Counted from the stretch's first letter, positions 6,001 through 60,200 are shown. The stretch: DNA of 64,000 nt from Candidatus Omnitrophota bacterium (GCA_016208765.1 JACQXK010000038.1:14955-78954); one strand, 5' to 3'. The notes: generated from the sequence alone by a model not told the origin. Translations and numbers: made by a program.

Positions 6001-9000
6001 CAATGAATTAATTACTGCATCACCCAGGATAACCGGTGCAAAAATATGTCCTAACAAAGAACTCAACAATATCAATTGTAACCTGCCAAAGAAGAACATT
6101 GTAGTTGCAGACAAAACAGGGAAAGCAACGTTTAACCTGACAAAGAAAAATGCAATATGTAATACGGCCTTGGCCGGCCAACTCAAGTTTGCATATTCAG
6201 CAGCCAATTTCTTTTCAAGATTATTAATAAATTCGGTTTGCGCTGCCTCAAGCTGGTTGTCATGATGCTTAAAAATTAAACCTGTTCTTTCCGCGTTATA
6301 CAACGCGCGGTCAAAAAAGAAGTTGCGTAAAACATTCCAAAGATAAGGCATGGTATACCCCAGCACAGCCGCGATGATGATAAGTTTTACGCTGGCTATT
6401 CCTGAGGTTAATACCACTGCCAAAGATAAACCGATATAAGCTGCGCGGGTCTTTAATGTAAAATGGCGGATACTAAACAGGTCGCGGAAAGAGTGCCTTT
6501 CACCTAAGGTCTTCTGAGTGTGGACAGCCTGATGTGCCAAGCGTAAAGCAATAAGCCTGGTTAATAGCATGCCGAATGCAAGTTTTAGAAATTTAACACC
6601 GCTATACTCTACACCGTGCTTGGTTAAGAAACTTGCAGTTAAAAGCATGCTTATGCCAAGCATAATAACTACTGAAGGCAGTAATTTGGCAAGTAAACCA
6701 GCGCTGATGATTAACGGTGTAATCTTGAGCCCGCCGATAATAAGCAAGGTACCGGCTGCCACATACAATGCCGCAGGCATGGCTTTTTTAAGTGCGGCGG
6801 CAGGAGTGATCTGGGTTTGCGGATTTAGCCGGATATTTTTGCGCGCAGTAAAAGAAGCATACAACAATCCAAAAGAGGCTGCCGATAAGACAACCGGCAA
6901 TAGCGGCAAAAATCCTTTTATGTTGACAAGCAAACCAAACAGAATAATTATAGTTGCAACTGATGCGATCTTTACCGTTTTAACAACTAAATTTCTGACA
7001 CTACTGGACGAACAAATAGTAACCAAACTCCCCACCGGCCCTGCGCGGATAAGGCCCTTGTTTGCAACATCGCTAAGATATTTTCCTGCTCCAAAATTAT
7101 TAAATAACGCCGATGAGCTCTTTGCCGCTTCCTGTGAAGCAATCGCCCCAACCACAGCGCCCACGGGTGAAGACGTGCCCGTCTTTGTCACCATCAGCGC
7201 TCCAACCGGAGAAGAAGACTTAACTATTGCATCAAATGGTTTAGAAAATACATTGCCATTTTTAGAGAAATTAAATGCTTTAAAGAATGCCCCGTCACCA
7301 ATCCTTGGATCCACTACGATGCTTACAGTAGGATTAAAATCTGTGCCATGATATTTTGCTATTTCTTTTTCTTGTTTCCAATCAACTAATATCAAGCTCA
7401 GGAATTTCAGTAATAAAATCGGAGAAAGATACTCATTACGCCTGCTATTTATAACTCCGAAGCAAAAAACAACTATATTATTATTGTTTTCGTCATATCT
7501 ATACACAACGGCTCCTATAGGATGGTCGCCATTGGATTCCTTCTTTCCAAAATCTCTTTCATGCGCAAAGAATACCTTTAATCCGCGCTTAGCCAATACA
7601 GCATGGATATAACTCCTCTCATATCCGATATCTAACAGGATTTTGAATAATACACTGTCTTCTACTATCTTAATATCTCTCTCTCCGGATATGCCATATG
7701 AGCCGCTATATTCTTTTAGCAGCATATGTGCGGAAAATATAGAAGTAAGGACTAAACCGGGTATCTCCACCATATCCCGATATTTATTTTCAAATTCCGC
7801 AACAGCATACCGCATTGTTTCTCCTGCTGTTCCAACAGTATTTCTTGCTTCATTATCTCCATCTATGGTATCAACGAAATTCAAGATGTACTTAACCTGG
7901 TTTTTGAGAAAATTCAGCCTTGGCAAAAGTATCTCTTTTTTAATCTCATCCCATGTGTTATCAGTTAATTTCACCGAAGCTGGAGCACCGGTGATATTCT
8001 TGATAGATTCAACAAATAGAACAGGATCCGGATCAAGATTAGAAGCAATTTCAGCAACAGAAGGTTGTTCCATGCTTAAAACCTCTTCAATAAATTTAAG
8101 CATACTCTGACACCCATCTATTATTTCGCTCTTTATCACATCGGGAGAAGCCAGATACGAAGCATAAGCCGGATCTTGCATAAGTTTAATATTACCAACA
8201 ATCGGCCCTATGGAATTGCCCATAAAATGGTTCAATGTCTTAAAAAATGCCCTAAACAATTCGCTCCAGCCCATCTCAACAACAGCCGAACTGGCTTGCG
8301 TGGTGTTAATTGCCACTACCGCCCCTACTGCAGATGAAGCGGTGACGGCTTTTTTCATCAGGTCAATTATAAAGGCTTCATTATCAGCAAATCTCTTTGT
8401 GAACATCTCAATAAACAAAATGCCTCTTTCTCTGAAAGTAGTCTGTTCCGGATCAACATTCTGATCCCTGGTAATAACCATTATGTAATCTTTCATAAAC
8501 TCCCGGACTACTTCTTCGGCTTTTCTTAGGTTGCGCCCGCGTAAAGTTTCTAAATTCAACAAGAATGTTCCTTTTATATCAATTAAAAGTTCGTTATTAT
8601 CCCTATGGGCCTTAACAAAGTTTGCACCAGCATTAATACTTGCTAACACAAACTCCATTTTCCCGATTTCGCTCTCTATCCAAGCAAAGGCCTCTTTTCT
8701 TTTCTCCGGCTCTGATACTTTTTTAAGACGATATAAAGCCCCATTGATCACGAACATCGCGGCGTTAAGGTCATACTCAGAAATCTTGGTTATTGTCTGG
8801 CACAACATACCAAAAATATCCTGCGCGTCTGTTTTTGTTCTCTTGCGTCCGCCCTCTATACTCTTGCTGAACCCTATGATCAGTTGCTCCAACGCGGTTA
8901 AACCCTTCTTATTATTTTTCTTATATTTAGACAAAGCATCCTTAAATTTATCAAGGGTAACGGTAAATTCGCTCAGGAACACTTTGATCATTTCTTTTGA

Positions 9001-26769: not shown

Positions 26770-26885
26770 GCGCCTCCCCTTACCCCAAATTTCTTTAATC
26801 ATCGCGTTTATCTTCGCGCTCGTCATAATTTAATTAAAGAGAATTAAAATCTGTTTGTGAAACTGTTTAATAAGCAATTAAATAA

Positions 26886-27070
26886 AAAACCGGATTGTCA
26901 AAACCTTGTCTCGGTTCGGCAACCCGGCCATCCTTTGATAATACTCAATTTATCTTTTAGGACCCGTGGCTTTGCGCCCCCCGATTACTCGTCCCGTTCA
27001 ATAATCTTTCTAACGGGATCCCGCTTTTTTTGCGGGAGGGTTTGCCCTTCTCGTTCCAACCTCTAATTGC
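26886..27070 (-). promoter_or_regulatory. Conserved 5' leader L1 of giant gene A (structured RNA candidate ending in hairpin + U-tract)
   Basis: Homologous to 35088-35296 and partly to 45303-45489. Shared blocks: GCGGGAGGGTTT, CCCGTGGCTTTG(C/T)GCCCC, CGG(C/T)AACCCGGC, a hairpin, then AAAAATAAAA(A)CCG (U-tract on the sense strand). Confidence 0.5.
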
Positions 27071-27076
27071 ATATTA

Positions 27077-27105
27077 AGTATATATGATGCTTACAAGTGT
27101 GTCAA
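27077..27105 (-). promoter_or_regulatory. Sigma70-like promoter of giant gene A (TTGACA, 17 nt spacer, TATACT)
   Basis: Sense strand reads TTGACAcacttgtaagcatcataTATACT. An AT-rich UP-like region lies upstream. Confidence 0.5.
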
Positions 27106-27212
27106 GTATATTTTTAGTACTTTTTGAAAGTGTTTTCTTTCTACTCTTTTCTGCGGTTACCGCCCTATTTGCAAAGGGTTTAGTTGCTGATTAATTTTTG
27201 TTTCCTCTTTGT

Positions 27213-27279
27213 TGTCATTCCCGCGGACACGGGCATCCAGGCATTTAAACGGTTGGATTCCCGCTTTCGCGGGAATGAC
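27213..27279. repeat. Palindromic intergenic repeat, GTCATTCCCGCG...CGCGGGAATGAC family, copy A
   Basis: gtcattcccgcggacacgggcatccaggcatttaaacggttggattcccgctttcgcgggaatgac. The outer 12-nt arms are inverted repeats, and the inner gggcatccagg/ctggattccc arms are also inverted. ORF-track ORFs here (WIPAFAGMT / VIPAKAGIQ) are translation artefacts of the repeat. Confidence 0.85.
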
Positions 27280-27327
27280 AAACCTCCCCTACGATTTTCG
27301 TAGAGAGGTGTCCAATACTTCTCTATT

Positions 27328-27417
27328 GTCATGCCCGCGGACTCCAGCGGCCTTGCCGCTAGGCAGGCGGGCATCCAGGCGTTCCAATAGCTGGATTCCC
27401 GCTTTCGCGGGAATGAC
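27328..27417. repeat. Palindromic intergenic repeat copy B (with extra inner hairpin insertion)
   Basis: gtcatgcccgcggactccagcggccttgccgctaggcaggcgggcatccaggcgttccaatagctggattcccgctttcgcgggaatgac. Confidence 0.85.
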
Positions 27418-27423
27418 GAGCAT

Positions 27424-27460
27424 GACGTCATCCTGAACGAGCCACGCGAGTGAAGGATCC
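27424..27460. repeat. S-element short repeat (GACGTCATCCTGAACGAGC...GAAGGATCC), copy 1
   Basis: Related copies at 35532-35567 and, in reverse orientation, 47798-47823. Confidence 0.7.
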
Positions 27461-27469
27461 AATAAGCTC

Positions 27470-27536
27470 AGATTGGACAATTATATTGGACTTTATTTCA
27501 CTTTGGACATTTTACAGGCATTTAATAATGTCCAAA
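27470..27536. promoter_or_regulatory. Cluster of TTGGACA(T) motif sites just downstream of the gene B stop, including the inverted pair TTTGGACAT(17 nt)ATGTCCAAA
   Basis: cagattggacaa (27470-27480), attggac (27485-27491), tttggacattt (27503-27513), aatgtccaaa (27527-27536). Confidence 0.6.
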
Positions 27537-27545
27537 CTGAAACCT

Positions 27546-30500
27546 TTAAAATTCTTCACGGGTTTCTCCTGAAGTTGAGAAAGTAACAGACTTATTTGTT
27601 TCAGTTGAGCTGCTTAAATCAGGATCATTGGATGGCTTTGCTTTAATATAATCCCACCTATAACCAACAGTGTCATCTCCCATTAAAGGCTTAACAAAAG
27701 CCTGCGGCATACCGTTAGCATTCCATGCCGGAGGCAGCATAATTGAAGCACGGCCTTCATAGGCAGCTCCAAGAGTAAGATCCTCAGGATTATCCTGCAC
27801 CAAAGTAATACCATTGCCCATATCCACCAGTTGGATCTTAAGTAATCCATCTCGTGCCTCTTCCAAGCTGATAATAGATTGTGCGGGATCCTGCCAGCGG
27901 CCCAATTCTTCACTAAGTTTCTTTATTTCTTCCTGCACTTCCTTTAATTTCTTTTCAGCTTCTTTTTTCTGCTGGCTATCATCACTCATCGCTTCCAAAC
28001 CTTTATTAATATTTTCTTCTTGTAGAACTAACTCTTCAACACTGCTTTTCTTATCCCTCAGATAATTTATGTCTTGAGTATAAATATTATATGCTGTGCG
28101 AATATTTGCCTCAATAGAATCTCTATTGTACGCTCCGTTACGGGGCAGGGTAAATGCCGGCGCCAACTGCAGATTATTTTCTGCCCGATAACCGGAAGTA
28201 ACGCCCCATTGCAATAACGGCGCATTTTCTTCGGTATTAAAACGGGTATACTTATAAACACCCGACTGCCAAACCACATTTGCCGGAGCGCTAAGCTGCC
28301 CTATCTGTTTCACATATTCAGTCCTCTCAAATAATTCTCCCGAGGTATGCTTATCTGCCTTGGCTCTTTCAGCATTGAACCTGTCAAACACAACGCGCTT
28401 TGTAAGCGGCAGATCTTTCTGCTCTTGGGCATCATCACCTTGGATAGCCTCAAACTGTTTAAAGTCAAATACAACACTCTGCGCAATTTGCCATATCTGG
28501 TCGGTTAAGCTGCTTGGAATTGCTGAATCAAATTGAGGTTTATTGCCACCGGCGTAAGCCGCATTCAATGCCTCTTCAAACATACGCTTCCCCTTGTCTC
28601 TTAAAAATGCTGCTTCTCTGCCTGTGTTTAAATACATATAAGGCTGCAGTGCCGGGCCTGAGCGGGTTTCAGAAAGGCGCCATGAGTAAGACGGATTTCC
28701 ATAAGGGCTGTGCCCTTGGCCGATAGAATAGAAGTTATAATTGTAGTCTGTATTTGCCCCGACGGAAACTGGAGCGTAGCCAGATGGCTGTATTTCAACT
28801 GTAGGAACAACTTCCGGCTTCTTAGGCTCCGGATCCCTCATCATTACCTCAAGGCTGCGCGGCAACCATATCACGCTGGCAGCAAGCATGTTAGCAACAT
28901 GGTGGCGAGGAGCTTTGTCTGGATCATAATCCTGGATAACCGCAGTTGTTGCAGCATCTCTTTTCATATTATTGCTCGGATAATCTGAATTGGATTGCAT
29001 ATTCCAATCTTCTAAGACAGTTGCCCAGCCAACAAATTTAACGGTAAATCTTTCTTTGTCTTTAGCAGACATTTCATTCCAAGCATCATGATTATTGGCA
29101 ATATACCACAAAAGCATTGTATTATGCGAAGTTGGCTTGTCGCTCTTAAACCCGCGTCCAACCCTTCCTTGTTTTTTATACCAACGCCTCACAATGCCAT
29201 CAAGTTCTTTCACCAAATCCGGATTATCAGCAAACAATTTCTCTGCATCCCGGTAAGAAACTTTCACCACTTCCACATCTTTGTTTTCAACTGCAGCTAT
29301 AAGCCTTTTTGTGGCCACAGCTTTAGCGGCCCTTTGCACCGGATCATCCCTGCTAAACAGCTGTTCCGTCGCTGTAGGCAGTTTTGGAAAACGAATAACT
29401 ACCCGAGCCTCAACAGGAACAGGGCTCTGCCCTTGAGGAGCAGCTGCTTGATCTTGCTTGCCAACTACGCTTTGCTCTTGCACATACTCCGGAGGAGTAA
29501 TCGCGGTGTAATCCGTTGTCCTGGTCAATGCAGAACCAAACGGGCCGTAATAATATTCGGTTGTCTTGGGCAATTGCACCAAATTCCAATTACCATTGGC
29601 AAAATCCTGGCCATCCTCACTAACAAAATCCTGCCCGAAATATTCTGTGCTTCTTGCCCTGCCCCATAAATCAACTCTGGTGCGCGATAAAAGGCTGGTA
29701 ACCGGCGAGAAAAATACCGGCCGCGCAGAAGAAAATTTGCGGATAATTTCTTTTTTATCTTCAAGTGACAAAGCCAATAATTTTTCTTTTTCGGCATTAA
29801 ATTCCTGCACTGCTTTTTCATCCTGAGCATCAGGCAATTGCATACGTTTTACAAATTTATCAAACTGCTCTTGCATAAACTGATCCTGAGTAACAAGGTC
29901 ACTCTTTTGAGCCTTAAGCATATCTTGTGTCAACGCCTGCATTACCGGCTGGGCGATAACAGAACGCCCATAGGTCAACTGATCCAGAGGCAATCCGCCG
30001 GCAACTGACAAAGAATAAGTGCTGTTTACTACTCCGTCGCCAATATTAGGTAAAGATAAATATTTACCCAAAATACCTCTTTCCTGCGGCTTAAGCATTG
30101 TTGAACTGCTGGCGCTAAAATGCCGCATAAATAATGCTTCATTAGTATTTAGGGATGCGTCCATACCTGCGGCCTCATCTCTGCGCTGGTAATGATAAAT
30201 ACCGCCGATTTGCCCATGGCCAAGGCTTGAATCATACACGGAATATTCCATTTGCCTTGCCTCTGCCATCTGCCTTGCCACAGGCAGAGCTTGCTGCATC
30301 CAATTATCTTCACCTTCTCCGCCTTTCTTGCTAAAGAAATAAACCGACTTATCTCTAAGCGCCCAACCTTGAGTAATTTCTGCAGTAGTAACAGGAGCAG
30401 AATCAGGTAACTTAGCGCTATACACAGGTGTTAACCCTTGTGCCGCAACCACCCACTGGAATATTTCCTGGCGCGGAATTGATAAATCTTGAAGTTGTCT

Positions 30501-33500
30501 ATTTATTTCTGGTAAAGGCGCTTTTATTGCATCCATTTCATCTCTCAATCCATTAATGCGTGTCTCCTGGATACTAACAAAATCCTTAACCTTACCTTCA
30601 AAAACACTGATTTCTTCTGCACCAAGCGCATCACGATTCATAGATTGTCCAGCAAGCTTATTAATATTTTCTACTTGCTCTTCTTCCCCAGCAAAAACAC
30701 CAAACTGAGCATTTGTGGCAACCACAAGCGAAATTGTATTAACATCCGGATTTAAACCTTGCTCTTTTGCCTTCTGCAAATCTTGATATGCTGCGTAAAT
30801 CGGATCTGCTTCCAGCTCTTTTTTCTTTTTCTCTTTTTTATTCACTTGCTCTGCAATTTCAGTTTTCTTTACTTCTAAGCCAACTATTTGCTCAGCTGTA
30901 TCAGGCTTATATCTCTTCGCAGTATCAATAAATCTTTCTGCCTGCTCTCTTAAGGCCTTTCTTCTTTGCGTTTCCTCTTTTACTAACTCGCTTGTAGGCT
31001 TAAAACTTGCGTAGGTGCGGGAAGAGCGAGGCAATATTGGATTTGTAAAAACAGCAGAAACAGATGAAGCCAGCCTTGAATTTGCCTGCTGGCTCAATGA
31101 TTCAAGCATTAATGCCCTATTAGCTTGTAACGGGCTGTAACCCTTTGCCCGCATTTTCATATATTCAATAAAACGATCCTGCTCATTAAATCTTGCCTGC
31201 AAACCATTCATTCCGTTAATCGGCGTCCTTAAATTAACCGGGAACAATGTGGCATTAACCGTTGACAGGAATAAATTATCCCCTATATTTTCCAAGGTAG
31301 CAGGAATAAACCTGCCCAACACATCACGCATGCTGAAATTAATTCTTCCTTTGCTGATTGGATCCTCGCCCAGAGAAGGCATTCTCCTGGTTTCTCCGGA
31401 GTAATCAAACCCAGCTATATTTAATCCATAAACAGTCCTGGTAATTTCGCGTGTGCGCACGCGGAAATCCTCCGGAGCAAGCTCTACTTCTTTTCTTTCT
31501 TTGGAAGATAAAACAATTATACCGGTTTCTTTCTTACCAACAACAACACCTTTCTCATTTACTACATCCATTATCTTACGGGTATCTTGTGCTACCGAAT
31601 ACACCGTAGTAGTATCTGCATCCAATTCAAATTCTCCGGTGGATTCACTTCTTGCTGTCCCGCCTTGCGCTCTTATCTGGCTGACTGAAGCATAATGCAC
31701 ATCGCCAGTGGCAGACTTTAAAGAAATAAGCGGATCAGCGGTATTTTCTGTCCAAAATTTAGTCCCGTTAATCTCATATCCGGGGAGAGTAATCATTTTT
31801 AATGGAGAACGCTGAGACGGGCCGGCAAAAATAAATTCACCTTCTCCTAAAATATTATACACATCAACTATCTCAGTTTTCTGAACCGATTTGTTAAATT
31901 CTTCTCCGCTCATCTCTAAAATATTGCCATCGGTAGAGATAAAAGTGTGTTCCGGAGAAGCATTGCCTTCTTGGTCAGTAGCTCTAATATAAGTCCGTCC
32001 ATCTCCGGCAAACCGATAGTATTCTACGCTCCGTCTTGGACCCGACTGGGCAATCGCAGCCCACTGCTCTGAAGAAACTTCTTTATTTTGTCCATCACCT
32101 AATGAATGCAAAATAACACCAGCTGGCTTAGCCTGCTGGCTAAATTTCTCCGGCGTCATAAAAGTCCTCTGGCCACCTGGAGTTGATGCTCCCAAAAGCA
32201 CTCCAGTAACTGTACTCACGCCCTTTAATGCCTGTCCACTGCCATATTGGACAACATTTGCGGATAAATCTTCCAACGACACTGAGATCTTCTTTTTAGT
32301 CGTTCCTTCGCTTTCCAATTCAACACTATTGCTATCCTGGCTATAGCCAACAATATGATAATATTGTATCTCACCTGAACCAGAACTAAGGCCTACTCGC
32401 ATAGGAGCATTATTTGATGCTGAAGTTTCTGATGATTTCTGCTGCAAACTTACCGCCAACTCTCTGCCGAAGTCATTTTGAAATTCATCCATTGTCTTAA
32501 GTTTTTCACTGCCGGCAACTATGATCGGCTGTTGATCACTTTTTTTCTCGTCTTTGTTTTCTTCCGGTTTATTCGCCACAAAATCAACAACCATTATATT
32601 TCCAGTAGCTATTACTTGGCTGATATTACCATCTCTGACATAAACCTGAATATCTGTTTTCTTTGCTCCTTGCTTTTCTTTTACCTCATCCAATGTTTCA
32701 GAAGAAAAATCTATATACTGGCCATCGGGGGCATGAGCCCTTGTTATATCTTTTGCCGGTGCGCGCAAGACCAAAGCATCAACCACTGAACCAGCCACTA
32801 CACCACTGGCAAGATGTAATAATTCCTGCAATGCCTGCGGTTGGCGAATTTCATTCACCCGGCAATACTGCCCCCAGGCAATTTGCAAGCCGGCATCCAC
32901 AGCATTATCAATTAGCGACTTTGCTATATATTTAGAAAGAGATAAACTTCCTCTTGTTCGCCAATAATTATCCTGGACTTTATTACCTGTTTTATCATCT
33001 GTCCAAGTCGTTCCGGAATACCATGTGTTTAAAACATCTATATTAGAAAACACACCGCTAGAAAAACCGGCAATTGCTCCAGCACCTACGCGCTTAACCA
33101 AATTATCAAAAATCTTATCATCATCGTCGCCGTAATGAGTCTTATACCCCATTGCTGATAAGACTGCAAGCTTAACCCCCAAATTAACAAAGGGTGCCAG
33201 CCCCATATTCTGCACCGCCTTAAAAGACTGATTCAATATGCCAAAATCACTCATTGTGTTTCCTTGCACATCAGTCATCAATCCACCGGTTGCATTTAAC
33301 AAAGCAGCTGTGTTAACATGCGCTTGTGTTAATAAATTCAACGTACTCAGTTGTGCCTGAGCAAGCTCTCTTCCTGAAACCTGGAGCAAAACATTTTCCT
33401 TTTCACCTGTTGGAATAATAAGAATTACTTTTTCGGCAGATTGTAAAATACCAGCGAGCGCTTTATTTTGCGCAACATCAGAAAGGGCGATACTCCCAGC

Positions 33501-35045
33501 ATTATCTATGGACGCTGTTGCCCCATTTAACTGCGCAGCTGTAAAAGAATATTCTTTACCGCTAATATCTCTGATAGACACCGCAGCCTGCTGCGCCTGA
33601 TTAACCGCATTTAACATAATAGCATCTGCCTGATCCAACGCTCCACCTACTGCACTTAAGCTATACCCTCCCACATACTGCATTAACGACCTATAAACAG
33701 AACCCTTGTTCATATCAATATCAAGCGTATATGTGTCTTCACCAATTTTTAAAACTAGCGCCTTCTGCAACTCTCCAATTTCTCCCGTATTAATTCCTTC
33801 CTGCAATGATGTACCTTTAGTAGTTTTGCCTTGAGATAATTCCTGGATACTAATTTCTACAGTTTCAACCTTACCGTCTTTTGTTTGCCGCGTAACTTTA
33901 ACTTTGTCATTTGACGTAGCCTGATCAGAAACTGCATCTAATGCAGAAAATGCCAAGTTTGAAACAAATTGGTTTACAAAAATCCCGGAAACGCTGGCTC
34001 CAAACTGCGACACTAAATCAGCCAGCAACTCATCCCACCCGGCTTCTTCAAGCTTATCCTTTATTCCCTGCTGTGTCCAAAGCTTAAATGTGCCGACAAT
34101 CATATCGCTTGCCAAATGCACCAATGGCTTCTTTACAGATAATTCAATCCCATATTGAAAATAAGGGCTGCGCATACCGTAGCTTGGTGAGAACTTTTGC
34201 AGCAAAGCTTCAATCTTACCCATAACAACATCAAAGGTAGATAAATTACCTAACACACCCTTAATAATATTTTCTTTAATGAGCGCTAAACTTTCTTCAG
34301 TAACCTGCGCTGTTATCTCTTTTGGAAGAATTTTTACTGCCTCACTTGCTGCCTTTTCCAATGCCTCTGCTGTAGGCTTTCCGCCTGCCTTGGCTACACT
34401 GGCTACTGCCGTTACCACAGCATTTTTTATTGCAGCCTCACAAACAGAGCTTATTACTTCCTCAACTATCTGATCCACGCCTTCTTTGCCAAGCGTTTTC
34501 AATACTTCTTGAGGCAACTGTTCAATTGCTTCCCTTGCAGCGCTCTCCATCATTGCCAGCGAGGCTCCTTTTGGCAATTCTTCTATTGCCTTTTTAGCAG
34601 CGCTTTTAGCTGTTTCCTTTGCCATTTCTTTTGCTGACTGCGCCACGCCGGCACCATAAGCCACGCCTACAGAAACTACCATACCGGCAACCATAGAATA
34701 AAACTGCCCCTTAGTAACCGTAACCCCAGCCACCTCAAACATCGGCTTTGCATACTGATTATAATTGTAATAGTAAAGCGCGTAACCAGTTACATCAGAA
34801 GCAGCAGAGCCCGCCGCTGCTGCAGCAGCTCCCCATGGGCCCAGAGCGTAAGCTCCCAAAAGTATTCCCGCATCAGTTACTGCACCTGCCAAAGCGCCTC
34901 CGGCAAAAGACTCCAGAGAAGTAGTGTTGCCATAATTGCCTTCTCTTGCCCAAGCCGGAGAAAGGCTGCTAAATAGAAAAACACCCGCCAGAATTAAGTA
35001 TGGGATTTTAAATCTTTTTAGGTTAGAGAAAAAGTTACTTTTCAT
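27546..35045 (-). CDS. Giant secreted protein B (about 2,499 aa), function unknown
   Basis: ORF track 27546..35060. I prefer the ATG at 35045 (MKSNFFSNLKRFKIPYLILAGVFLFSSLSPAWA, signal peptide with AWA cleavage site). The N-terminus has Gly/Ala-rich hydrophobic stretches. Long coiled-coil and charged segments; contains LASSVSAV and SPVTS-like motifs. Confidence 0.85.
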   Translation of the reverse strand: MKSNFFSNLKRFKIPYLILAGVFLFSSLSPAWAREGNYGNTTSLESFAGGALAGAVTDAGILLGAYALGPWGAAAAAAGSAASDVTGYALYYYNYNQYAKPMFEVAGVTVTKGQFYSMVAGMVVSVGVAYGAGVAQSAKEMAKETAKSAAKKAIEELPKGASLAMMESAAREAIEQLPQEVLKTLGKEGVDQIVEEVISSVCEAAIKNAVVTAVASVAKAGGKPTAEALEKAASEAVKILPKEITAQVTEESLALIKENIIKGVLGNLSTFDVVMGKIEALLQKFSPSYGMRSPYFQYGIELSVKKPLVHLASDMIVGTFKLWTQQGIKDKLEEAGWDELLADLVSQFGASVSGIFVNQFVSNLAFSALDAVSDQATSNDKVKVTRQTKDGKVETVEISIQELSQGKTTKGTSLQEGINTGEIGELQKALVLKIGEDTYTLDIDMNKGSVYRSLMQYVGGYSLSAVGGALDQADAIMLNAVNQAQQAAVSIRDISGKEYSFTAAQLNGATASIDNAGSIALSDVAQNKALAGILQSAEKVILIIPTGEKENVLLQVSGRELAQAQLSTLNLLTQAHVNTAALLNATGGLMTDVQGNTMSDFGILNQSFKAVQNMGLAPFVNLGVKLAVLSAMGYKTHYGDDDDKIFDNLVKRVGAGAIAGFSSGVFSNIDVLNTWYSGTTWTDDKTGNKVQDNYWRTRGSLSLSKYIAKSLIDNAVDAGLQIAWGQYCRVNEIRQPQALQELLHLASGVVAGSVVDALVLRAPAKDITRAHAPDGQYIDFSSETLDEVKEKQGAKKTDIQVYVRDGNISQVIATGNIMVVDFVANKPEENKDEKKSDQQPIIVAGSEKLKTMDEFQNDFGRELAVSLQQKSSETSASNNAPMRVGLSSGSGEIQYYHIVGYSQDSNSVELESEGTTKKKISVSLEDLSANVVQYGSGQALKGVSTVTGVLLGASTPGGQRTFMTPEKFSQQAKPAGVILHSLGDGQNKEVSSEQWAAIAQSGPRRSVEYYRFAGDGRTYIRATDQEGNASPEHTFISTDGNILEMSGEEFNKSVQKTEIVDVYNILGEGEFIFAGPSQRSPLKMITLPGYEINGTKFWTENTADPLISLKSATGDVHYASVSQIRAQGGTARSESTGEFELDADTTTVYSVAQDTRKIMDVVNEKGVVVGKKETGIIVLSSKERKEVELAPEDFRVRTREITRTVYGLNIAGFDYSGETRRMPSLGEDPISKGRINFSMRDVLGRFIPATLENIGDNLFLSTVNATLFPVNLRTPINGMNGLQARFNEQDRFIEYMKMRAKGYSPLQANRALMLESLSQQANSRLASSVSAVFTNPILPRSSRTYASFKPTSELVKEETQRRKALREQAERFIDTAKRYKPDTAEQIVGLEVKKTEIAEQVNKKEKKKKELEADPIYAAYQDLQKAKEQGLNPDVNTISLVVATNAQFGVFAGEEEQVENINKLAGQSMNRDALGAEEISVFEGKVKDFVSIQETRINGLRDEMDAIKAPLPEINRQLQDLSIPRQEIFQWVVAAQGLTPVYSAKLPDSAPVTTAEITQGWALRDKSVYFFSKKGGEGEDNWMQQALPVARQMAEARQMEYSVYDSSLGHGQIGGIYHYQRRDEAAGMDASLNTNEALFMRHFSASSSTMLKPQERGILGKYLSLPNIGDGVVNSTYSLSVAGGLPLDQLTYGRSVIAQPVMQALTQDMLKAQKSDLVTQDQFMQEQFDKFVKRMQLPDAQDEKAVQEFNAEKEKLLALSLEDKKEIIRKFSSARPVFFSPVTSLLSRTRVDLWGRARSTEYFGQDFVSEDGQDFANGNWNLVQLPKTTEYYYGPFGSALTRTTDYTAITPPEYVQEQSVVGKQDQAAAPQGQSPVPVEARVVIRFPKLPTATEQLFSRDDPVQRAAKAVATKRLIAAVENKDVEVVKVSYRDAEKLFADNPDLVKELDGIVRRWYKKQGRVGRGFKSDKPTSHNTMLLWYIANNHDAWNEMSAKDKERFTVKFVGWATVLEDWNMQSNSDYPSNNMKRDAATTAVIQDYDPDKAPRHHVANMLAASVIWLPRSLEVMMRDPEPKKPEVVPTVEIQPSGYAPVSVGANTDYNYNFYSIGQGHSPYGNPSYSWRLSETRSGPALQPYMYLNTGREAAFLRDKGKRMFEEALNAAYAGGNKPQFDSAIPSSLTDQIWQIAQSVVFDFKQFEAIQGDDAQEQKDLPLTKRVVFDRFNAERAKADKHTSGELFERTEYVKQIGQLSAPANVVWQSGVYKYTRFNTEENAPLLQWGVTSGYRAENNLQLAPAFTLPRNGAYNRDSIEANIRTAYNIYTQDINYLRDKKSSVEELVLQEENINKGLEAMSDDSQQKKEAEKKLKEVQEEIKKLSEELGRWQDPAQSIISLEEARDGLLKIQLVDMGNGITLVQDNPEDLTLGAAYEGRASIMLPPAWNANGMPQAFVKPLMGDDTVGYRWDYIKAKPSNDPDLSSSTETNKSVTFSTSGETREEF

Positions 35046-35087
35046 ATTTTTAAGTGGCAAATACTTTTTGAAACTGTTTAGGATTTA

Positions 35088-35296
35088 AGCAAAAATAAAA
35101 CCGAGCTGCCTTTATTCAAACTCGGCAACCCGGCTACCCAAAAAATGATTCCAAATAAACTCGGTAAACTACATTTCTCCGAGGGGCCCGTGGCTTTGTG
35201 CCCCCTGATTACTCATCCCGCTCAATAATCTTTTTAACGGGATCCCGCTTTGCGGGAGGGTTTACTCTTATCGAACTGACCTTTATTATTTACTAC
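35088..35296 (-). promoter_or_regulatory. Conserved 5' leader L2 of giant gene B (paralog of L1) ending in hairpin CCGAG...CTCGG + UUUUAUUUUU, 45 nt before the ATG
   Basis: About 85-90% identical to L1 over the core cccgtggctttgtgccccctgattactcatcccgctcaataatctttttaacgggatcccgctttgcgggagggttt. Confidence 0.5.
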
Positions 35297-35302
35297 AATG
35301 CA

Positions 35303-35332
35303 AGTATAGCATTCATATATATATATTTCAAG
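35303..35332 (-). promoter_or_regulatory. Sigma70-like promoter of giant gene B (TTGAAA, 17 nt spacer, TATACT)
   Basis: Sense strand reads TTGAAAtatatatatatgaatgcTATACT. Confidence 0.5.
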
Positions 35333-35419
35333 GGTGTTTTTAACTCTTTTTGAAAACGCTTTCTTATGCATTAAGATTCTTCAGCCCCTTCGCGGTGAGG
35401 CATTCAACACTTTTCTATT

Positions 35420-35509
35420 GTCATGCCCGCGGACGCCAGCGACCTTGCCGCTAGGCAGACGGGCATCCAGGCGTTCCAACGGCTGGATTCCCGCTTTCGC
35501 GGGAATGAC
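35420..35509. repeat. Palindromic intergenic repeat copy C
   Basis: gtcatgcccgcggacgccagcgaccttgccgctaggcagacgggcatccaggcgttccaacggctggattcccgctttcgcgggaatgac. Nearly identical to copy B. Confidence 0.85.
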
Positions 35510-35531
35510 ACGAGCGCCAAGGAAGACCAAC

Positions 35532-35567
35532 CAAATGAATACGTCATCCTAAAGGAGCGCAAGCGAC
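35532..35567. repeat. S-element copy 2
   Basis: acgtcatcctaaaggagcgcaagcgactgaaggatc. Confidence 0.6.
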
Positions 35568-35586
35568 TGAAGGATCTAAGATACCC

Positions 35587-35622
35587 AGATTGGACATTAT
35601 CACAGCTATTAATGTCCAATCT
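35587..35622. promoter_or_regulatory. Near-perfect palindrome AGATTGGACATTA(9 nt)TAATGTCCAATCT, 6 nt after the lipoprotein gene stop; operator-like and/or terminator hairpin
   Basis: 13/14-bp arms. There is no U-tract afterwards on the sense strand. Confidence 0.55.
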
Positions 35623-35628
35623 GACAGA

Positions 35629-36143: not shown

Positions 36144-36180
36144 GTCGTCCCCGCGCAAGCGGGGATCCAGGCATAATGAC
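36144..36180. repeat. Degenerate half-copy of the palindromic repeat family (reverse orientation)
   Basis: gtcgtccccgcgcaagcggggatccaggcataatgac versus the reverse complement of gtcattcccgcgaaagcgggaatccagc. Confidence 0.5.
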
Positions 36181-42110: not shown

Positions 42111-42176
42111 GTCATGCCCGCGGACGCGGGCATCCAGACGTTCCAATGGCTGGATTCCCGCATTCGCGGGAATGAC
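42111..42176. repeat. Palindromic intergenic repeat copy D (between the tadE-like gene and the Cys-rich pseudopilin gene)
   Basis: gtcatgcccgcggacgcgggcatccagacgttccaatggctggattcccgcattcgcgggaatgac. Confidence 0.85.
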
Positions 42177-42183
42177 GGTTAAG

Positions 42184-45119: not shown

Positions 45120-45291
45120 CTTGCACCCCCATAAATGCTGCTATGGTCTGAAAATGATTCTCAAACACATTATTCTTTGTTTTTAGAAGAAAATCAGTGC
45201 TTACTAAGGCAATCACAGCTACTGCTGCCAAAAGCAGATATTCTACGAAAGATTGTCCAATCTGGTTTCTTAAAGACTTTTTAAATTTCAT
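45112..45291 (-). CDS. flp: Flp-family pilin (flp1, about 59 aa), first gene of the pilin array, under promoter/leader L3
   Basis: ATG at 45291 preceded by AAGGAG. MKFKKSLRNQIGQSFVEYLLLAAVAVIALV. The track ORF 45112..45444 reads through the leader. Confidence 0.75.
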   Translation of the reverse strand: MKFKKSLRNQIGQSFVEYLLLAAVAVIALVSTDFLLKTKNNVFENHFQTIAAFMGVQVD

Positions 45292-45302: not shown

Positions 45303-45489
45303 TAAATAAAAAACCGACGTCTCTTTTACTTTCAAAGAAACCTCGGCTTTCGGTAACCCGGCTAATGCTCTCGCTCTTGACCTTAAAGCTTAAAGCAATG
45401 AAGACAAATCTTGCGAGCGTCATCCCGTGGCTTTGCGCATCCACCCCTCCAAGAGTGGAATTGCCTTTTCGTTGCCGCCCTTCAACTAC
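45303..45489 (-). promoter_or_regulatory. Leader L3 upstream of the flp array, sharing the 3' half of the L1/L2 leader
   Basis: Sense strand: ...GCGCAAAGCCACGGG...GCCGGGTTACCGAAAGCCGAGG...GACGTCGGTTTTTTATTTAAGGAGatactaATG. aaataaaaaaccg matches L1 exactly over 13 nt. Confidence 0.45.
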
Positions 45490-47370: not shown

Positions 47371-47379
47371 GCTCTCTCC

Positions 47380-47450
47380 AGATTGGACATTTCCTCTACA
47401 ATATTACCATTTTTATGCGGCGTGTCAAGCTCTTTATAGATTGGACATTT
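47380..47450 (-). promoter_or_regulatory. Promoter of the HTH-protein gene (TTGACA, 16 nt spacer, TAATAT) flanked by two direct AGATTGGACATTT sites
   Basis: Sites at 47380-47392 and 47438-47450. -35 at 47423-47428, -10 at 47401-47406. Confidence 0.5.
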
Positions 47451-47797: not shown

Positions 47798-47823
47798 ATC
47801 CTTCGCTCGTTCAGGATGACGTC
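47798..47823. repeat. S-element copy 3 (reverse orientation) spanning the tadZ-tadA stop codon
   Basis: gatccttcgctcgttcaggatgacgtc. Confidence 0.6.
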
Positions 47824-54215: not shown

Positions 54216-57200
54216 TTATTTAGATACAAAGTTTATACCGGCTAAACTTGATTGAAATTCTTCTCCTGTTTTTTCCGACTCAAGCGCAACTAAAAATTGT
54301 TTTAAACCGGTGTCTGTCGCGCAACATTCTTCTTCCTGCTTTCTTAATATATCTGCCATCAGGCTGATTACTTTATCTATTTCCTGATCAAAATTATTTA
54401 CAGCGCAACAATTAGATAAATACTCTTTAATTCTTTGCGCTGAAGGAGTAATTCCTCCATTGAACATCCTCTCAATTGCTTGCCATTCTTTGGCTAAAGA
54501 GCCATCCGTAGAGTAGAGGAGGTTTAAACCTCCTCTACTAACTGGTGACTGGTGACTGGTGACTGGTGACAGCATCCCCGGCTGTGTCACAATCGGCAAA
54601 ACGCGCATATCAATACCACCTTTTTTGTCCGCTGATGATGAAACAGGATACTCAGTATTAACCATCGCAATATTTTCAGCTTCCTTCTTTTTTCTAGCGT
54701 CAACTAAACTAACTACCTTAGGCGGACTTTGTAATGTCAAATTAACACCTAATATCTTTGCTGATTTTTCCCTGATAAGATTAATCTCATCTGTAATAAG
54801 CCCATAATCGGATTGAGAAATAATCTCTTCACCTCTAACCTCTTTTGCATATTTTGATATTATCGTAATAAAACGGTTTACTGCATTCCAAGCATCTTCA
54901 TTGCTTCCGGAAATATTAATCTCGTAGCGCGGTTGTCCAAAAATCTCGTTAAGCTCATCACGAAGCTCTTTAACATTATCCGAACTCAAAGTCGTGTTCT
55001 GCAATATATAATCCCCCAGATGCATTCTTAAAAGCAACAGCAAATCTTTTACCTGTTTTTTATCTACGTTCAATCTGACATCTTCTTGTCCCGCGCTTAA
55101 CGAATAATCCCGGTTTATATTTATCACAGGAGGATATTTTTCCACCGCCGAGGAGGCTGTCGCACCGGCTCCCGCATTAACGTTATCTCTTTCGGTTTTT
55201 ATATTACCTCTCGTGGCATTGAGAATCTGTGATAACAATAATACTGCAGAAGTATCCGCTGCCTGCTGATTATATTTATTCTTAAAACCTATATATGTAT
55301 TAAACGCTCTTGCACCAGCTGCCGCAGGGTCAGCCATGAGTTTCTTAAAATTTTGAAGACTAAATTTCAAAGCTCCTTTTCTTCTGGAAATAAAATCCTT
55401 AGCCGATAAATTAAACAACCAATCCCCAGGAAAATATAAAATTGGTTTTACAAGGCCTGCCGGCTCAAATATATTTCTATCTTCACCGACAATACACAAA
55501 TCTGCGATTGCAAACATTTTTAACAATTCTCCTGTTGTATAGAGAATCAAAACATCCTTTTCCGACATGTCTACAAACTTTTCCGTAGTTGTTCCCCGGA
55601 TTTCAACGATTTTGCTTGCGACCGTTTCAGGTAAACCACCGGGCCATTTTTCTCTTGGCGCAAAAATTAATAGCGGCCTATCCTGACGGGGTAGATTACC
55701 ATATAATTCATCAAATGCCTTAGCCACAGCATTTGCTTCGTGATAATAAGGAGAGCCCACAACAATAATTTTTCTCTTACCGACATTTAATTCTTTTTTT
55801 ATCCGGGCTGCTTCCTCAGAAGCCACAAATTCCTGCATACTGTGTTTAAAAGGAAAGTAGGGCAATGAAACAGAGGCGCCCACCTCTTTATCAACTCCGC
55901 GATGATCATGAAATTCTATCCAGATATACCTCCCATCATCCTGAACCTTGTTGGGCGCAACGAGCTTTTCTGCACGATAACCTGGAAATTCTTTTTCTAC
56001 AACTTCTTTTTCTTGGATATCCCCAAGAAAACTAAATTCGGCTGTGCCGCTATCCAAACCTAATGCTTCAATAAAACCTCTGGCGGCACGAAGCGAAGCA
56101 AACTCATAGGCGACAAACTTAATTTTTTTTCCGCTTAATTTTAAAGCATTTTTAAAAATACGGCCGATTGCGATGATTTGATCGCGGCCGACAGCCTCAT
56201 CTGGCCTGCCCAATTTATCAACTAACTTATTAAATAAAATTAACGCGAGATTCTCAAGTTCTGCCTGAGCATTTTCTTTGCCTATTCTTTCAGCGCCAAA
56301 AAAGACATTGCTGATTCGTAACAAATTTGCTTTGGTTTGCACAGAATTACCGACAACAACTATTTCATCTTTTAAGACAGGAAAGGCAGTCTCAAATAAA
56401 TCCACTGCGTTTTCTTTCGCCAATACACCGGCTTCTACAAGGGTCTCAAAATACCTATCAAAAAACTCCATCCCAAACTCTTTAACAAAAACCTGTAGGC
56501 TATCAATAAACAAGTTATTAGATTCTCTGCCGCTAGCCATAAGCAGAGAAACAAGGCCATTGCCAATTCTTTGCAGATTCTTGGTAGTTTTTTCTGCATC
56601 ATCTTTTACGACAATTAACTCTTTAAATATTACCAAACCCAACTCACACAGAACCCATGCTTCCTCGCCTGAAGATTTAAAAAGCTCAACAAGAACATTC
56701 CAATTTGTTTCCATAAAATGCTCTCCGTATGCTTTATAGAAAACTGGCAGGCTATTTGCAAATAAGAGAATGGCGTTTTCTCCGGAGCTCTGGGCAATCT
56801 CTACCAAGCTATCCCAATGTTTAGTGACAAAGGCCATGCCGACTTCTTTTGTTAACCTGGGTAAAGCAATACGGAATAGAGGGCTTGCTATTTTTTTATT
56901 AGCCCCACAGAACTCAACCAGTCTTTCAGAAATTCCTGTCAAAGAAAGAATTTGCTGAGTCTCTTCAGGAAGGTCATTAAATGAAATTTTTGTAAAAGTA
57001 AAGATTTCTTTATTATAATCTTCCCTGATTGAGCCTCCCACCGCCGATGAGGAAACGTTGGATAACTTAGGCTTAAATGCGATCGCCGCAGGAGAATTGT
57101 CTTTTTCATTTTCAAAAATAATTCTCTCAACTTCTTTCTTTCTATTTTTATAAATGTCAGCTATCAGTTCATCAACATAGGGAACCCTTTTTTCAATCCT

Positions 57201-60200
57201 CGCGCCAATATCGGGAAGCATAAAATCCACAAATAATATATAGCCGTTATCACCCAAAATTTCTTGCGCTTGGGCAATGTATTGCCATACATTCCAATTT
57301 TCATTCCCTATGCCAAGATTAACAGGAGCATATAAATTCATAAATTGCCACATGTTATAAAACACTACCACTACAGGGCCTTTTTGCAGTCCGAATCTTT
57401 CTTTTAAACTATCCTGAAAGTCATCTTCAAAAAAATCTTTTTTGAATATTTCACAGCCTTCTACAGCAGGAAGCGATGCGTTAGCGTCCACATTAATTAC
57501 CCGCCAACCTTTCGTAATAAGCGGGTTCCGGCCACTTCCAATATTTAAAATCACGCTACCCTTAGGAATCTTTAATTTCTCAAGAAATATTTCCAGGTTT
57601 TTTGAAGCCGCTTCCCTGTAATGGCCATTTAAATCATTGAGATGGGGCATTAGAGATACGCGTACGCACGAAGACACATCCTCCACCGCAGAGGAAGCGA
57701 CAGTATCTATATCCTTAGGAGCGAGCGAAGAATCAAGAGGCAGCTCAATAATCTTAGGCTCAACAGAAAGAACTTGGTTATTCAAAATATTAATCATTCT
57801 CCGGCATTCTTTTGTAAGAGCACCCTGAGCGTCATAATATGGCCTCAAACAATAAAGCTCGTCTCCTTTTTGCGAAATCGCTACCTGCCCACCAAGAGGT
57901 TCAAGATAATTTACCAGGGTATCTTCCTTATCTCTAAACCAAGCGGCAAATTCTCTTATTAACAAGTCTTCATTACCCGTATCATAATAAAGACTGAAAA
58001 ATGTTTTAATAAATTCTCTATTGGCTTCTGAAAGACTTAACCATAATTTTTTTAATTCAAGGCGGTAATCAGGATTAATAAAGTATTCCGCGTGATTTAA
58101 TTCATGTTCAACTGTAGCTTTTCCTGCGCCTTGATAGTAAGTTACAATAGCTATGTCAGGAGCGCCAATATATGTATGGCCTGTTCTCACAAGCAACCCC
58201 AGCTTTATTAATTCTTCTTTCATTCTTTCCTCTATGACGTTTAAAGACATGCCCTGTTGCGCTGCCAATGTAAAGAAATTTGCCATATCCTCCAACTTGA
58301 AATCATGGCCCAATGCTCCTTCACACCCAGTTTCTGCCAACTCTTGGTCAAGCCGGCTATCCGAAAGCAAGCCATTTTTCTGTTCTACAAAAAAACTAAG
58401 CCGGTCAAAGGCTAATCCTTGAAACGTAGACTTGTTAAATACGAAAAAGAATACCGGCTTAGAACCATACTTTAATAATCTGTAAAACTCACTTTCCCGC
58501 AGGTTAACATTCAAAATATCCTCTGCTTGCATAAAACTGGATAATACTTCAGAGGCCTGAAGAGGATATCCAGACAAAGATGTTTTTAACTCTTCCAATC
58601 TCCCCTCTTTAAAATACCTGTACCGGAAAGCTGGATCATATTTCAAACTCCTTGCCATCATGTCTCTGTAATAAATACTAGATTCCATGTTTTCTTTTAT
58701 AATTAATCTAAATTCTTTTGAATCAAGAAAATGTTTCAAAATATCTGCTACGGGTTTTACACTACCGTCTCCCTGTAGGATAGCCGGTGCAATAACGAGC
58801 ATTGCCCATAAAAGAATTCTTTTAATAACCCTATTAAAATTAATCATCTTATGATTTCCTGAAAGAATATTGGTTATTGTTGCCGATTCTGTTCCTTCCG
58901 CTACTGAAGAGTTAGCAGATTGCTTAATCGCCGAGGAGGCGACAGTGCTTTTGGCATGAGGCGTAAGCGAAGAATCAAGAGGCAGCTCAATAATTCTTTC
59001 TTCAACAGCAGGCGGGTTAACTTGCGGGCCTGGAAAAACACTTTCTTCCTCTTGCGGTTTTTTTGTTCCGCTAATCATGCCTTCAACGACATTCACCGAA
59101 ATTTTCTTTTCTTTGCCTTTGCCGTCGCCAAGAGTAGCCACCACTAAAACAATCGTATTCCCTTGGTGGATGAGAACAGTATTAGAGCAAGTTACATCTT
59201 TAAAATCATCCTCGGCAATGCCTAAACGCCTGCAGACCTCTTCTTTGCTCTTGATTAAAATATCTAAAGCATCAACTACGGCTTTTTGGGAAACTATATC
59301 CAAATTGCTATTATTCGTGCTCTTGAGCAATTCTAAACTTAGATTATGCGCCTGATATTCCACCTCAAGACGCGGTTTGCTATCAGGGCTTCCTGAATAG
59401 ATAACCATATAGGCAATATGCTGAGCCAGGGCCATAGCTCTTTCTTTCCTTCCCCCTTGCAGCCGGCTGAACCATTCCCACCCAACCACTATAATTGTAG
59501 TAAAAGAAGTTTTGCCGGAATTATACGTAGTTTTCGTCTGAAGAAAAGCCGTGCCATCCCCCATGCCTATTCCTTTCATAAAAAGAACCTGAAAATGATT
59601 ATTTTCATTTCTTAAAAAAGGTTCTTCCGGTAACTTATCCGCCAAATATTTGATGCTTTCCTCAACTAGCCCTGCGTGCTCATTAGATATTCTTATGGAT
59701 TGTTGCAGCCGTTCTTTTGTAACTCTGCCCGGGGCATACCTTTGCACAAAACCTAACAGCCTGTCTGAATAAACAATATCCTCTTGCTCATTGTTGTCAA
59801 AATCTTGCTGGCCTACCACTTCTCCCACTGTCTTTTTTATGCCCTCCAATGCCGTTGCGTTCATAGGCATAATGCCCAAGGCTGCTACAAAAGCAACCAA
59901 AGAAAGCAAGCCCGTCGCTGCTAACTTTTTCTTCACCGCCGAGGAGGCGAAGGATCCAGAGTAAGTAGCCCGATAGGCTTTTTCAAAAGAGCGCAATGCA
60001 ATATCAGAATACTTACCGAGAGACCTATACAGCTCAAAATACTCAGTCTCAATATTATCCTCTGAGACTTCGTTCAAGCTGTATACATTATTAAGATCAA
60101 CTCTCAACACTTCAGAGACCTTGTCATTTTCAACCCTGACAACAAATTGGCCAAGATGGGTATCCCCGGCGATTATTTCTTGATTATGAAGCGTGGCTAA

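Follow-up and report, generated by a model that had tools for sequence, protein, structure and literature searches.

CGTC-1 REP doublets in the Tad locus of a Candidatus Omnitrophota genome and their association elsewhere with Ssn-like GIY-YIG genes

Repetitive extragenic palindromes (REPs) have been sorted into GTAG- and CGTC-tagged superfamilies (Di Nocera, De Gregorio & Rocco 2013, PMC3733652). Within the latter, units of the CGTC-1 family contain a CGTC tag (TGTC is tolerated), an 8-bp stem starting with AT, a 4-nt loop and a CCA tail, and the family corresponds to the dRS3 repeat of Neisseria. CGTC-1 units occur mostly as dimers with the tags outside (‘HH’ dimers), sometimes as heterodimers only, and are intergenic, close to the 3' end of the upstream open reading frame (ORF); their hosts belong to five phyla, mainly to Alphaproteobacteria, and the literature reports no association of CGTC REPs with a transposase (PMC3733652). 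A 2025 Nature Communications paper on Ssn nucleases defined a 28-nt NTS consensus (CGTCATTCCCGCGMAVGCGGGAATCYRG) and a broader motif termed the Ssn-related motif (SRM), HGTCWYN(0-2)YYVSBRHN(0-5)WNVSBRGN(0-2)RNCYNB (PMC11893778). SsnA is a small GIY-YIG protein whose binding and cleavage of the NTS hairpin require single-stranded DNA (ssDNA) and are limited to the forward strand. Copies of the motif typically flank ssnA homologues, the Ssn family corresponds to cd10448, and binding and cleavage have been shown for the Neisseria and Wolbachia homologues only (PMC11893778). Here we describe palindromic elements in a 64,000-nt stretch of DNA from a Candidatus Omnitrophota bacterium (GCA_016208765.1 JACQXK010000038.1:14955-78954; hereafter, the window), which a sequence-only reading had described as a family of five compound palindromes placed ahead of promoters. 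By their sequence and arrangement, we assign these elements to the CGTC-1 REPs of dRS3/NTS/SRM type, organized as HH heterodimers; as tags-outward doublets, they probably act as ssDNA hairpins for an Ssn-type nuclease encoded elsewhere in the genome.

Inverted pairs of CGTC-1 units in the window

The terminal 12-mer GTCATKCCCGCG occurs eight times in the window, as four inverted pairs, against a shuffle expectation of 0.32; the repeat family is therefore real. Each compound palindrome consists of two 27-nt units in inverted orientation with 12 nt between them (doublets A to D, Table 1), and each unit is laid out as a (C/T)GTC tag, an 8-bp GC-rich stem that starts with AT (ATKCCCGC / GCGGGMAT), a 4-nt loop and a CCAG tail. 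All four doublets have their tags outside, with GTCAT at the two outer edges and ATCCAG facing the spacer. Left and right units differ from each other, as the third stem pair is G..C and the loop GGAC in the left unit, whereas the right unit has T..A at this pair and a GAAA or GAAT loop. The stems read ATTCCCGC/GCGGGAAT and ATGCCCGC/GCGGGCAT; the exceptions to this scheme are the 28-nt loop in the left units of B and C and the degenerate stem in the left unit of A. Tails are CCAG throughout, save for CCAA in the right unit of A, and the tags read CGTCAT at the right units of B and D, TGTCAT at the right units of C and A as well as at the left units, and CGTCGT at an additional single unit. The whole-unit pattern GTCATKCCCG-N(4-34)-CGGGMATCCAG occurs seven times in the window (0.00 expected) and the dRS3-type core ATKCCCGC-N4-GCGGGMAT occurs six times (0.04 expected), counts that were attained in none of the shuffles.

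The boundaries proposed by the sequence-only reading hold for B, C and D and need a small correction for A, which begins at 27214 and ends at 27279, so that the doublets measure 66-90 nt rather than 67-90 nt. Its fifth copy is indeed present at 36144, but it ends at 36170 instead of 36180 and is a single unit. The long (B, C) and short (A, D) variants that it distinguished by an inner hairpin are confirmed, with the net difference being a 24-nt (not 25-nt) hairpin, AGCGGC-CTT-GCCGCT, nested in the left unit's loop. The peptides WIPAFAGMT and VIPAKAGIQ, which it had attributed to spurious small ORFs created by the repeats, are direct translations of the unit, and an 83-aa ORF (27180-27431, minus strand) overlaps doublets A and B. 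Accounting for such ‘VIPAKAGIQ’-type ORFs is one use of recognizing the doublets, whose value lies mainly in annotation and context.

Comparison with the published motifs places the units within the dRS3/NTS group. The right unit of B together with C27418 (27391-27418, minus strand) matches the 28-nt NTS consensus exactly and also matches SRM, whereas single mismatches to NTS occur in the right units of C (35483-35510, minus strand; SRM matched) and D (42150-42177, minus strand), two in the right unit of A and three in the single unit. SRM is matched three times in the window, compared with 0.06 times in simulations, and the right units carry the dRS3 core ATTCCC-N8-GGGAAT. The units are moreover an over-represented hairpin-forming repeat, as NTS and SRM are defined to be, on the evidence of the counts above and of the folding and covariation described below. 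The likeness to CGTC-1 extends to the (C/T)GTC tag, the 8-bp stem starting with AT, the 4-nt loop with occasional long loops, the CCA tail, the heterodimers with tags outside, the intergenic location near the 3' end of the upstream ORF, and the creation of spurious small ORFs. The REP-like behavior suggested from the sequence is thereby borne out and made precise. The differences lie in the host, here a Candidatus Omnitrophica metagenome-assembled genome (MAG) with 42% G+C, in the 12-nt spacer, which stands at the short end of the reported 20-100 bp range (PMC3733652), and in the 24-nt nested loop hairpin of two copies; in addition, the window contains compact doublets, whereas Neisseria has large NIME arrays with 50-150 bp RS spacers. 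The kind of repeat is already known (CGTC-1 REP, dRS3/NTS) and finding it here is fairly ordinary; what is added is its occurrence in an uncultured Omnitrophica genome, with two doublets that carry a nested loop hairpin. A family known mostly from Proteobacteria (Neisseria, Rickettsia, Sphingomonads) is thus extended to an uncultured ultra-small lineage.

Conserved pairing and presence or absence as a block

As had been expected from the sequence, all four doublets fold as single strands of either polarity into long stem-loops (dG -23 to -33 kcal/mol, z -4.5 to -7.3). Doublet A forms a perfect 12-bp outer stem (dG -25.3, z -7.3), and the single unit at 36144-36170 folds with a dG of -10.4 and a z of -3.2. 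Because the left and right units differ at the third stem pair and in the loop, a doublet is able to fold in either of two ways, as a pair of small perfect hairpins closed by GTCAT/ATGAC or as a single long one that contains a G·A mismatch. Conservation of the pairing was assessed in 47 left units, for 29 of which a 27-nt partner, anchored by CTRGA...TGAC alone, lies no further than 110 nt away. Among the 18 distinct partners, changes on both sides of the stem are seen at five of the eight pairs and 96.5% of the cells are paired, a value reached in none of 500 shuffles and nowhere near approached by register shifts. This result is not circular, as the partner unit lies outside the search pattern.

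Doublets of the same architecture are intergenic in Nitrospirota and Planctomycetota MAGs, where their stems show compensatory changes (e.g. GCCCGA/TCGGGC), and the family as a whole is present in many phyla. Nine hits in MAGs of these two phyla were obtained from a genome collection with a pattern that fixed two spacer positions (TT..AA), which is why the Omnitrophica orthologue described below was missed in that scan; the source MAG was likewise not among the hits. The unit pattern was found in at least 120 stretches of IMG/VR contigs and the doublet pattern in one viral contig, and the exact left unit of the window in 45 metagenome stretches with a G+C content of 40 to 73%, none of which is from the source organism. 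Among the 415 units counted in ~1.5 Mb of other contigs, adjacent units form 147 pairs, of which 86 are tags-outward, 23 tags-inward and 38 tandem. The units are depleted from ORFs, with 32% lying within crude ORF calls compared with 80% of random positions. The genes on either side of a doublet may be tandem, divergent or convergent, and where they are co-directional, the doublet has the same orientation in seven cases and the opposite one in seven. Pfam searches of 150 unit-adjacent ORFs identified housekeeping and phage structural genes as neighbors. As separate observations, contigs assigned to viruses (IMG/VR L012-L131) have 27-nt units between genes for phage structural proteins (portal, capsid, cement protein, tail collar), loci L020, L024 and L080 hold four to five units each, and GTAGGGGC...GCCCCTAC palindromes in or beside doublet spacers form mosaics like the bacterial interspersed mosaic elements (BIMEs; L006 1740-1775 and 2185-2210; L177/L146 spacers).

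The Tad locus itself provides a comparison of filled and empty sites. An orthologue of the 584-aa protein encoded next to D, from another Omnitrophica MAG (L179, 72% aa identity), has doublet D at the same site, with only two substitutions inside the element, both in the spacer (counted by eye on the alignment), whereas D is absent from two further orthologues with the same gene order (L181 and L182, 66% identity), which show a 32-nt gap. Gain or loss has therefore affected the doublet as a single block. Logan short-read contigs of the locus stop exactly at the edge of D, as expected of a dispersed repeat, and the doublets explain the assembly breaks at these sites in groundwater Omnitrophica genomes.

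An indel of this type, together with the inverted termini GTCAT...ATGAC, would also be expected of classical miniature inverted-repeat transposable elements (MITEs) derived from an insertion sequence (IS) with a DDE transposase, and covarying stems would be expected of a structured non-coding RNA gene; in one Nitrospiria MAG a doublet even lies inside a longer element with 19-bp terminal inverted repeats. We nevertheless consider both of these origins highly improbable. The terminal inverted repeats of a parent IS together with a target-site duplication, as in MITE- and Correia-type elements, were not found: the flanks of doublets A to D have no common or consistent duplication, a parent IS was not seen, and the conserved parts are the hairpins themselves rather than the termini of a longer element. 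As to RNA, a search of Rfam 15 at the gathering threshold and at E values up to 10 returned no match to the elements other than chance-level hits (E 0.6 to 4), and the orientation relative to genes is unbiased. The same 27-nt unit is also present in contigs ranging from 40 to 73% G+C, which fits recognition of DNA by a protein better than a lineage-specific RNA. The Nitrospiria MAG mentioned above (DATECO01; L003, L004, L007, L008 and L009) deserves a separate remark: its doublet is embedded in a repeated element of ~200 nt whose ends are inverted repeats of 19 bp (AGGAGCCGTTACGAAATAA / TTATTTCGTAACGGCTCCT); this element forms the end of several short contigs and looks like a composite MITE carrying the doublet.

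Units beside Ssn-like genes and a proposed mode of action

Contigs retrieved purely by the DNA pattern of the unit contain genes for small GIY-YIG proteins. Within the 1.5 Mb, tblastn detected nine Ssn-like ORFs (E 1e-27 to 1e-37), and all seven of those tested match Pfam GIY-YIG (E 1e-11 to 1e-19) as single-domain proteins of ~93 aa, in which Y6, Y17 and E64 are spaced as in the catalytic mutants of SsnA (PMC11893778). Units directly flank eight of the nine. The CCAG end of the unit located 3' of the gene is always directed toward the stop codon, and the forward unit ends 16-22 nt before the ATG in L130, L045, L129 and L091 (16 nt in three of these four). The commonest layout is unit(+)-gene-unit(-) with the tags outward, which is the geometry of the doublets in the window with a gene in place of the 12-nt spacer, and resembles the NTS-ssnA-NTS arrangement of Neisseria in that units identical to those of the window flank GIY-YIG genes of ~95 aa. 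Specifically, the exact right unit of the window is present three times in L130, where it flanks the Ssn-like gene, its exact left unit flanks the genes of L164 and L161, and near-identical relatives of its single unit (GTCATCCCCGCG..CGGGGATCCAG) flank those of L012, L045 and L129. The Ssn-like ORFs have at least 7998 homologues of ~97 aa, many of them named Sphingomonadales, a group that is named in PMC11893778; none of the best 120 of these homologues is from Omnitrophica. The Ssn-like ORF of L161 (353-625) has an internal stop codon and may be a decaying copy.

These associations suggest how the doublets in the window might function. In the Omnitrophica genome, the units would act at the DNA level as single-strand hairpins, which an Ssn-type ssDNA endonuclease would bind and cut just 5' of the tag. 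Because a doublet has one forward unit per strand, it would present a cleavable forward site on whichever strand turns single-stranded. The cognate nuclease would be encoded elsewhere in the genome; the 64 kb covered contain no ssn gene. The spread and persistence of the repeats would depend on this enzyme in a relationship like that of REPs and RAYTs, and any effects on the transcripts of the neighboring giant genes and Tad genes (stabilization by a 3' stem-loop, partial attenuation) would be a side effect rather than the reason for the presence of the repeats.

Several points weigh against this proposal. An Ssn or GIY-YIG ORF is found neither in the window nor in the Nitrospirota, Planctomycetota and Omnitrophica loci that were fetched. 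The left (G..C) units (GCCCGCG-GAC-GCGGGC) do not match the degenerate SRM motif as published. The tblastn probe was an ad hoc ~95-aa GIY-YIG consensus used for detection alone, the ORFs then being verified independently with Pfam, and with respect to membership of cd10448, the Ssn-like ORFs match no NCBIfam model and have only a weak UPF0213 match in the PDB. The geometry at the genes is non-uniform, as a whole doublet instead of a single forward unit lies upstream of the gene in L164 and L119. Finally, no target-site duplication was seen on comparing filled and empty sites at D, nor was any other signature of transposition, and even in Neisseria how such repeats multiply is unknown (PMC11893778).

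A variant of the proposal would treat the doublets as gene-less miniatures of the unit-ssn-unit cassette, non-autonomous and copied or maintained in trans by the GIY-YIG nuclease in a REPIN-like system based on another class of enzyme, that in Omnitrophota might also seed the duplication and exchange of riboswitch-led giant-gene cassettes beside the Tad locus; we regard this as doubtful.

The nearest parallel to a nuclease-dependent repeat is the REP/BIME/REPIN-RAYT system of E. coli and Pseudomonas, with which the doublets share inverted pairs of short hairpins able to form one long hairpin, an intergenic and multi-copy distribution, and a proposed driver in the form of a single-copy nuclease gene flanked by its own repeats. 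One metagenomic lineage (L140/L145/L171/L175) has a RAYT homologue at a distance of ~1 kb from a doublet, as would be expected if the doublets were themselves REPINs mobilized by a RAYT, i.e. by a Y1 tyrosine transposase of the IS200/IS605 type. This idea is already largely refuted and has very little probability left, as neither the tag nor the gene of the REPIN-RAYT system is found with the units. The tag is CGTC/GTCA in every unit, not GTAG or GTGG, and the associated gene encodes a GIY-YIG nuclease rather than a Y1 transposase, in agreement with the literature on CGTC REPs cited above. The sole RAYT found has flanking palindromes of its own, which are of GTAG type (GCGTAGCGTGCCGTGCGCAC) and not CGTC units, and with E. 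coli RayT as a tblastn probe no RAYT was detected in the 1.5 Mb outside that lineage. Among the 150 unit-adjacent ORFs no transposase family is enriched, a negative that is weak because the crude ORF picker sometimes took the wrong strand over an ssn gene. The RAYT homologue itself (L145 5209-5754, minus strand) is 46% identical to E. coli RayT, and the copies in L140, L171 and L175 are frameshifted; with its GTAG palindromes ~1 kb from a CGTC doublet, the L145 gene indicates that both REP superfamilies coexist in one genome.

Should an Ssn nuclease be found in the genomes that carry the doublets, these would constitute natural two-strand substrates for a newly described family of ssDNA-cutting enzymes, and the flanking geometry would support the notion that CGTC REPs relate to Ssn as REPINs do to RAYTs.

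Gene context of the doublets in the window

All genes in the window are on the minus strand, in a Tad/Flp pilus locus with two T2SSF proteins, a TadE/G-like protein and a TadZ-CpaF-type ATPase, among which giant ORFs are interleaved (Table 1); very long genes have already been reported for the phylum Omnitrophota. The only Rfam matches in the window are three cyclic di-GMP-I (c-di-GMP-I) riboswitches and one tRNA. The riboswitches lie upstream of minus-strand genes, and two of them precede giant ORFs, downstream of strong sigma-70-like sites (27105->27077 and 35331->35303). Doublets A and B are positioned between the stop codon of the 2504-aa gene and the first of these sites, ahead of the riboswitch of the next giant ORF, and C has the same relation to the second site, i.e. 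to the 2504-aa gene's own promoter-like site and riboswitch. Doublet D is found 7 nt past the stop codon of one Tad-locus gene and 26-32 nt ahead of the next start, with no promoter-like site in between, and the single unit is located 16 nt past the stop codon of a T2SSF gene (36187) and 8 nt ahead of the likely start (M14, 36135) of a PsbP-like lipoprotein.

Table 1. Positions of the repeats and neighboring features, counted from the first letter of the window
Feature	Position	Strand	Size or score	Remarks
Doublet A	27214-27279		66 nt	two inverted units, 12-nt spacer
Doublet A, left unit	27214-27240	+		GTCATTCCCGCGGACACGGGCATCCAG; stem degenerate
Doublet A, right unit	27253-27279	-		GTCATTCCCGCGAAAGCGGGAATCCAA
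Doublet B	27328-27417		90 nt	two inverted units, 12-nt spacer
Doublet B, left unit	27328-27378	+		loop holds 24-nt nested hairpin
Doublet B, right unit	27391-27417	-
Doublet C	35420-35509		90 nt	paralogue of B
Doublet C, left unit	35420-35470	+		nested hairpin in loop
Doublet C, right unit	35483-35509	-
Single unit	36144-36170	+		GTCGTCCCCGCGCAAGCGGGGATCCAG; variant with CCCCGC stem
Doublet D	42111-42176		66 nt	within Tad-locus operon
Doublet D, left unit	42111-42137	+		GTCATGCCCGCGGACGCGGGCATCCAG
Doublet D, right unit	42150-42176	-		GTCATTCCCGCGAATGCGGGAATCCAG
Second CGTC-tagged motif	27426-27442	+		CGTCATCCTGAACGAGC; beside doublet B
Second CGTC-tagged motif	35542-35558	+		CGTCATCCTGAACGAGC; beside doublet C
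Second CGTC-tagged motif	47805-47821	-		CGTCATCCTGAACGAGC
Further motif	27469-27539			CAGATTGGACA
Further motif	35586-35623			CAGATTGGACA
Further motif	45254-45264			CAGATTGGACA
Further motif	47379-47447			CAGATTGGACA
Giant ORF	1-26829	-	at least 8943 codons	runs past window start
Giant ORF	27546-35060	-	2504 aa
Giant ORF	54216-63905	-	3229 aa
c-di-GMP-I riboswitch	26915-27056	-	46.6 bits (Rfam)
c-di-GMP-I riboswitch	35121-35276	-	35.6 bits (Rfam)
c-di-GMP-I riboswitch	45349-45475	-	40.2 bits (Rfam)

The two intergenic regions at 26850-27540 and 35065-35625 are paralogues over a stretch that begins with the riboswitch leader and includes the doublet: the first two riboswitch leaders can be matched across ~300 nt, and the regions of B and C are 89% identical over 121 nt. 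As they are located in paralogous regions with a shared promoter-like site and riboswitch leader, B and C are not independent, and the sequences indicate that the two are one event that was then copied. Doublet A lies in ~150 nt of extra sequence (alignment columns 326-482) that is present only in the 27-kb intergenic region (26840-27560) as compared with its 35-kb paralogue.

This arrangement underlies two further explanations of the doublets. The first, which builds on the insulator or terminator role suggested by the sequence-only reading, is that they are selected terminators or insulators that block read-through into the promoter and riboswitch of the next giant gene. A/B and C do belong to the upstream gene's 3' untranslated region, at distances of 107 and 88 nt, respectively, from the sigma-70-like -35 hexamers ahead of c-di-GMP-I riboswitches, the intergenic RNA has a very stable predicted fold (-163.5 kcal/mol, z -13), and REPs in general have been proposed to terminate transcription or stabilize mRNA, with CGTC-1 units lying near the 3' ends of upstream ORFs. 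Intrinsic terminators are likewise GC-rich stem-loops downstream of a gene; the doublets differ from them in having no U-tract, in being symmetric on both strands, and in occurring within operons and in divergent regions as well. No T/U run follows any copy on either strand, and a scan of the window for intrinsic terminators reported none of the doublets. The consistent placement 5' of promoters that had been claimed is not borne out, as only A/B and C are so placed, and these amount to one observation because the sites are duplicates of one leader region, whereas D and the single unit are inside the Tad operon, between close genes of what appears to be one transcription unit. The third riboswitch leader (45349-45475) has no doublet, an orthologous operon works without D, and in other contigs both orientations are equally frequent (7 vs 7). 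The published CGTC-1 pattern, in which units lie near the upstream ORF's 3' end, fits the window just as well as placement before promoters. The missing U-tract, the operon-internal copies and the duplication of the leaders together mean that selection for insulation or termination is not supported, and we judge it improbable; a by-product effect on mRNA 3' ends is possible, given the predicted stability of the intergenic RNA.

The second explanation, which is compatible with hairpin recognition by an Ssn-type nuclease, views the doublets as recombination sites or hot spots, used either as a Piv/IS110-type target or for homologous recombination, that promote the duplication and exchange of giant-gene cassettes, a role proposed in Neisseria for dRS3/NIME arrays beside surface-protein genes. 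The near-identical B and C stand on either side of the 2504-aa gene and its promoter and riboswitch, and the leader region is present in duplicate. In Neisseria, NIME arrays are concentrated near genes for pili, adhesins and exoproteins, phages integrate at dRS3, and the neighbors here are Tad pilus genes and giant ORFs. We nonetheless think a role of this kind unlikely. A single gene is bracketed, which makes this one case, duplication of the whole leader explains the similarity of B and C without a special role for the repeat, and a recombinase gene was not seen in the window, although an IS110-type gene was not searched for.

The 181-aa ORF located between C and the single unit was considered as the gene of an NTS-gene-NTS cassette and was rejected, as it encodes the PsbP-like lipoprotein. 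At the site orthologous to that of the single unit, another contig (L180, ~6030-6060) contains a GTCATTGCGAACCCCGAAGGGGTGAAGCAA hairpin unit. Pfam has no match to the 2504-aa protein, and the N-terminal 3000 aa of the largest giant ORF match only Peptidase_C39 (aa 215-301, E 4.7e-8).

Three other repeated or palindromic sequences accompany the doublets. A second CGTC-tagged motif, CGTCATCCTGAACGAGC(..GAAGGATC), has three copies in the window (0.01 expected); it may represent another REP family of the same superfamily, perhaps as part of the same system. For the motif CAGATTGGACA, 11 copies with no more than one mismatch were counted, compared with 0.9 expected, often as inverted pairs (TTGGACAT...ATGTCCAA) just past minus-strand stop codons (e.g. 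27497-27535 and 35590-35620). A separate small hairpin, CCTCCCCTACG-ATTTT-CGTAGAGAGG, is found at 27285-27310, between doublets A and B, and has a diverged counterpart near 35375-35400 in the paralogous region.

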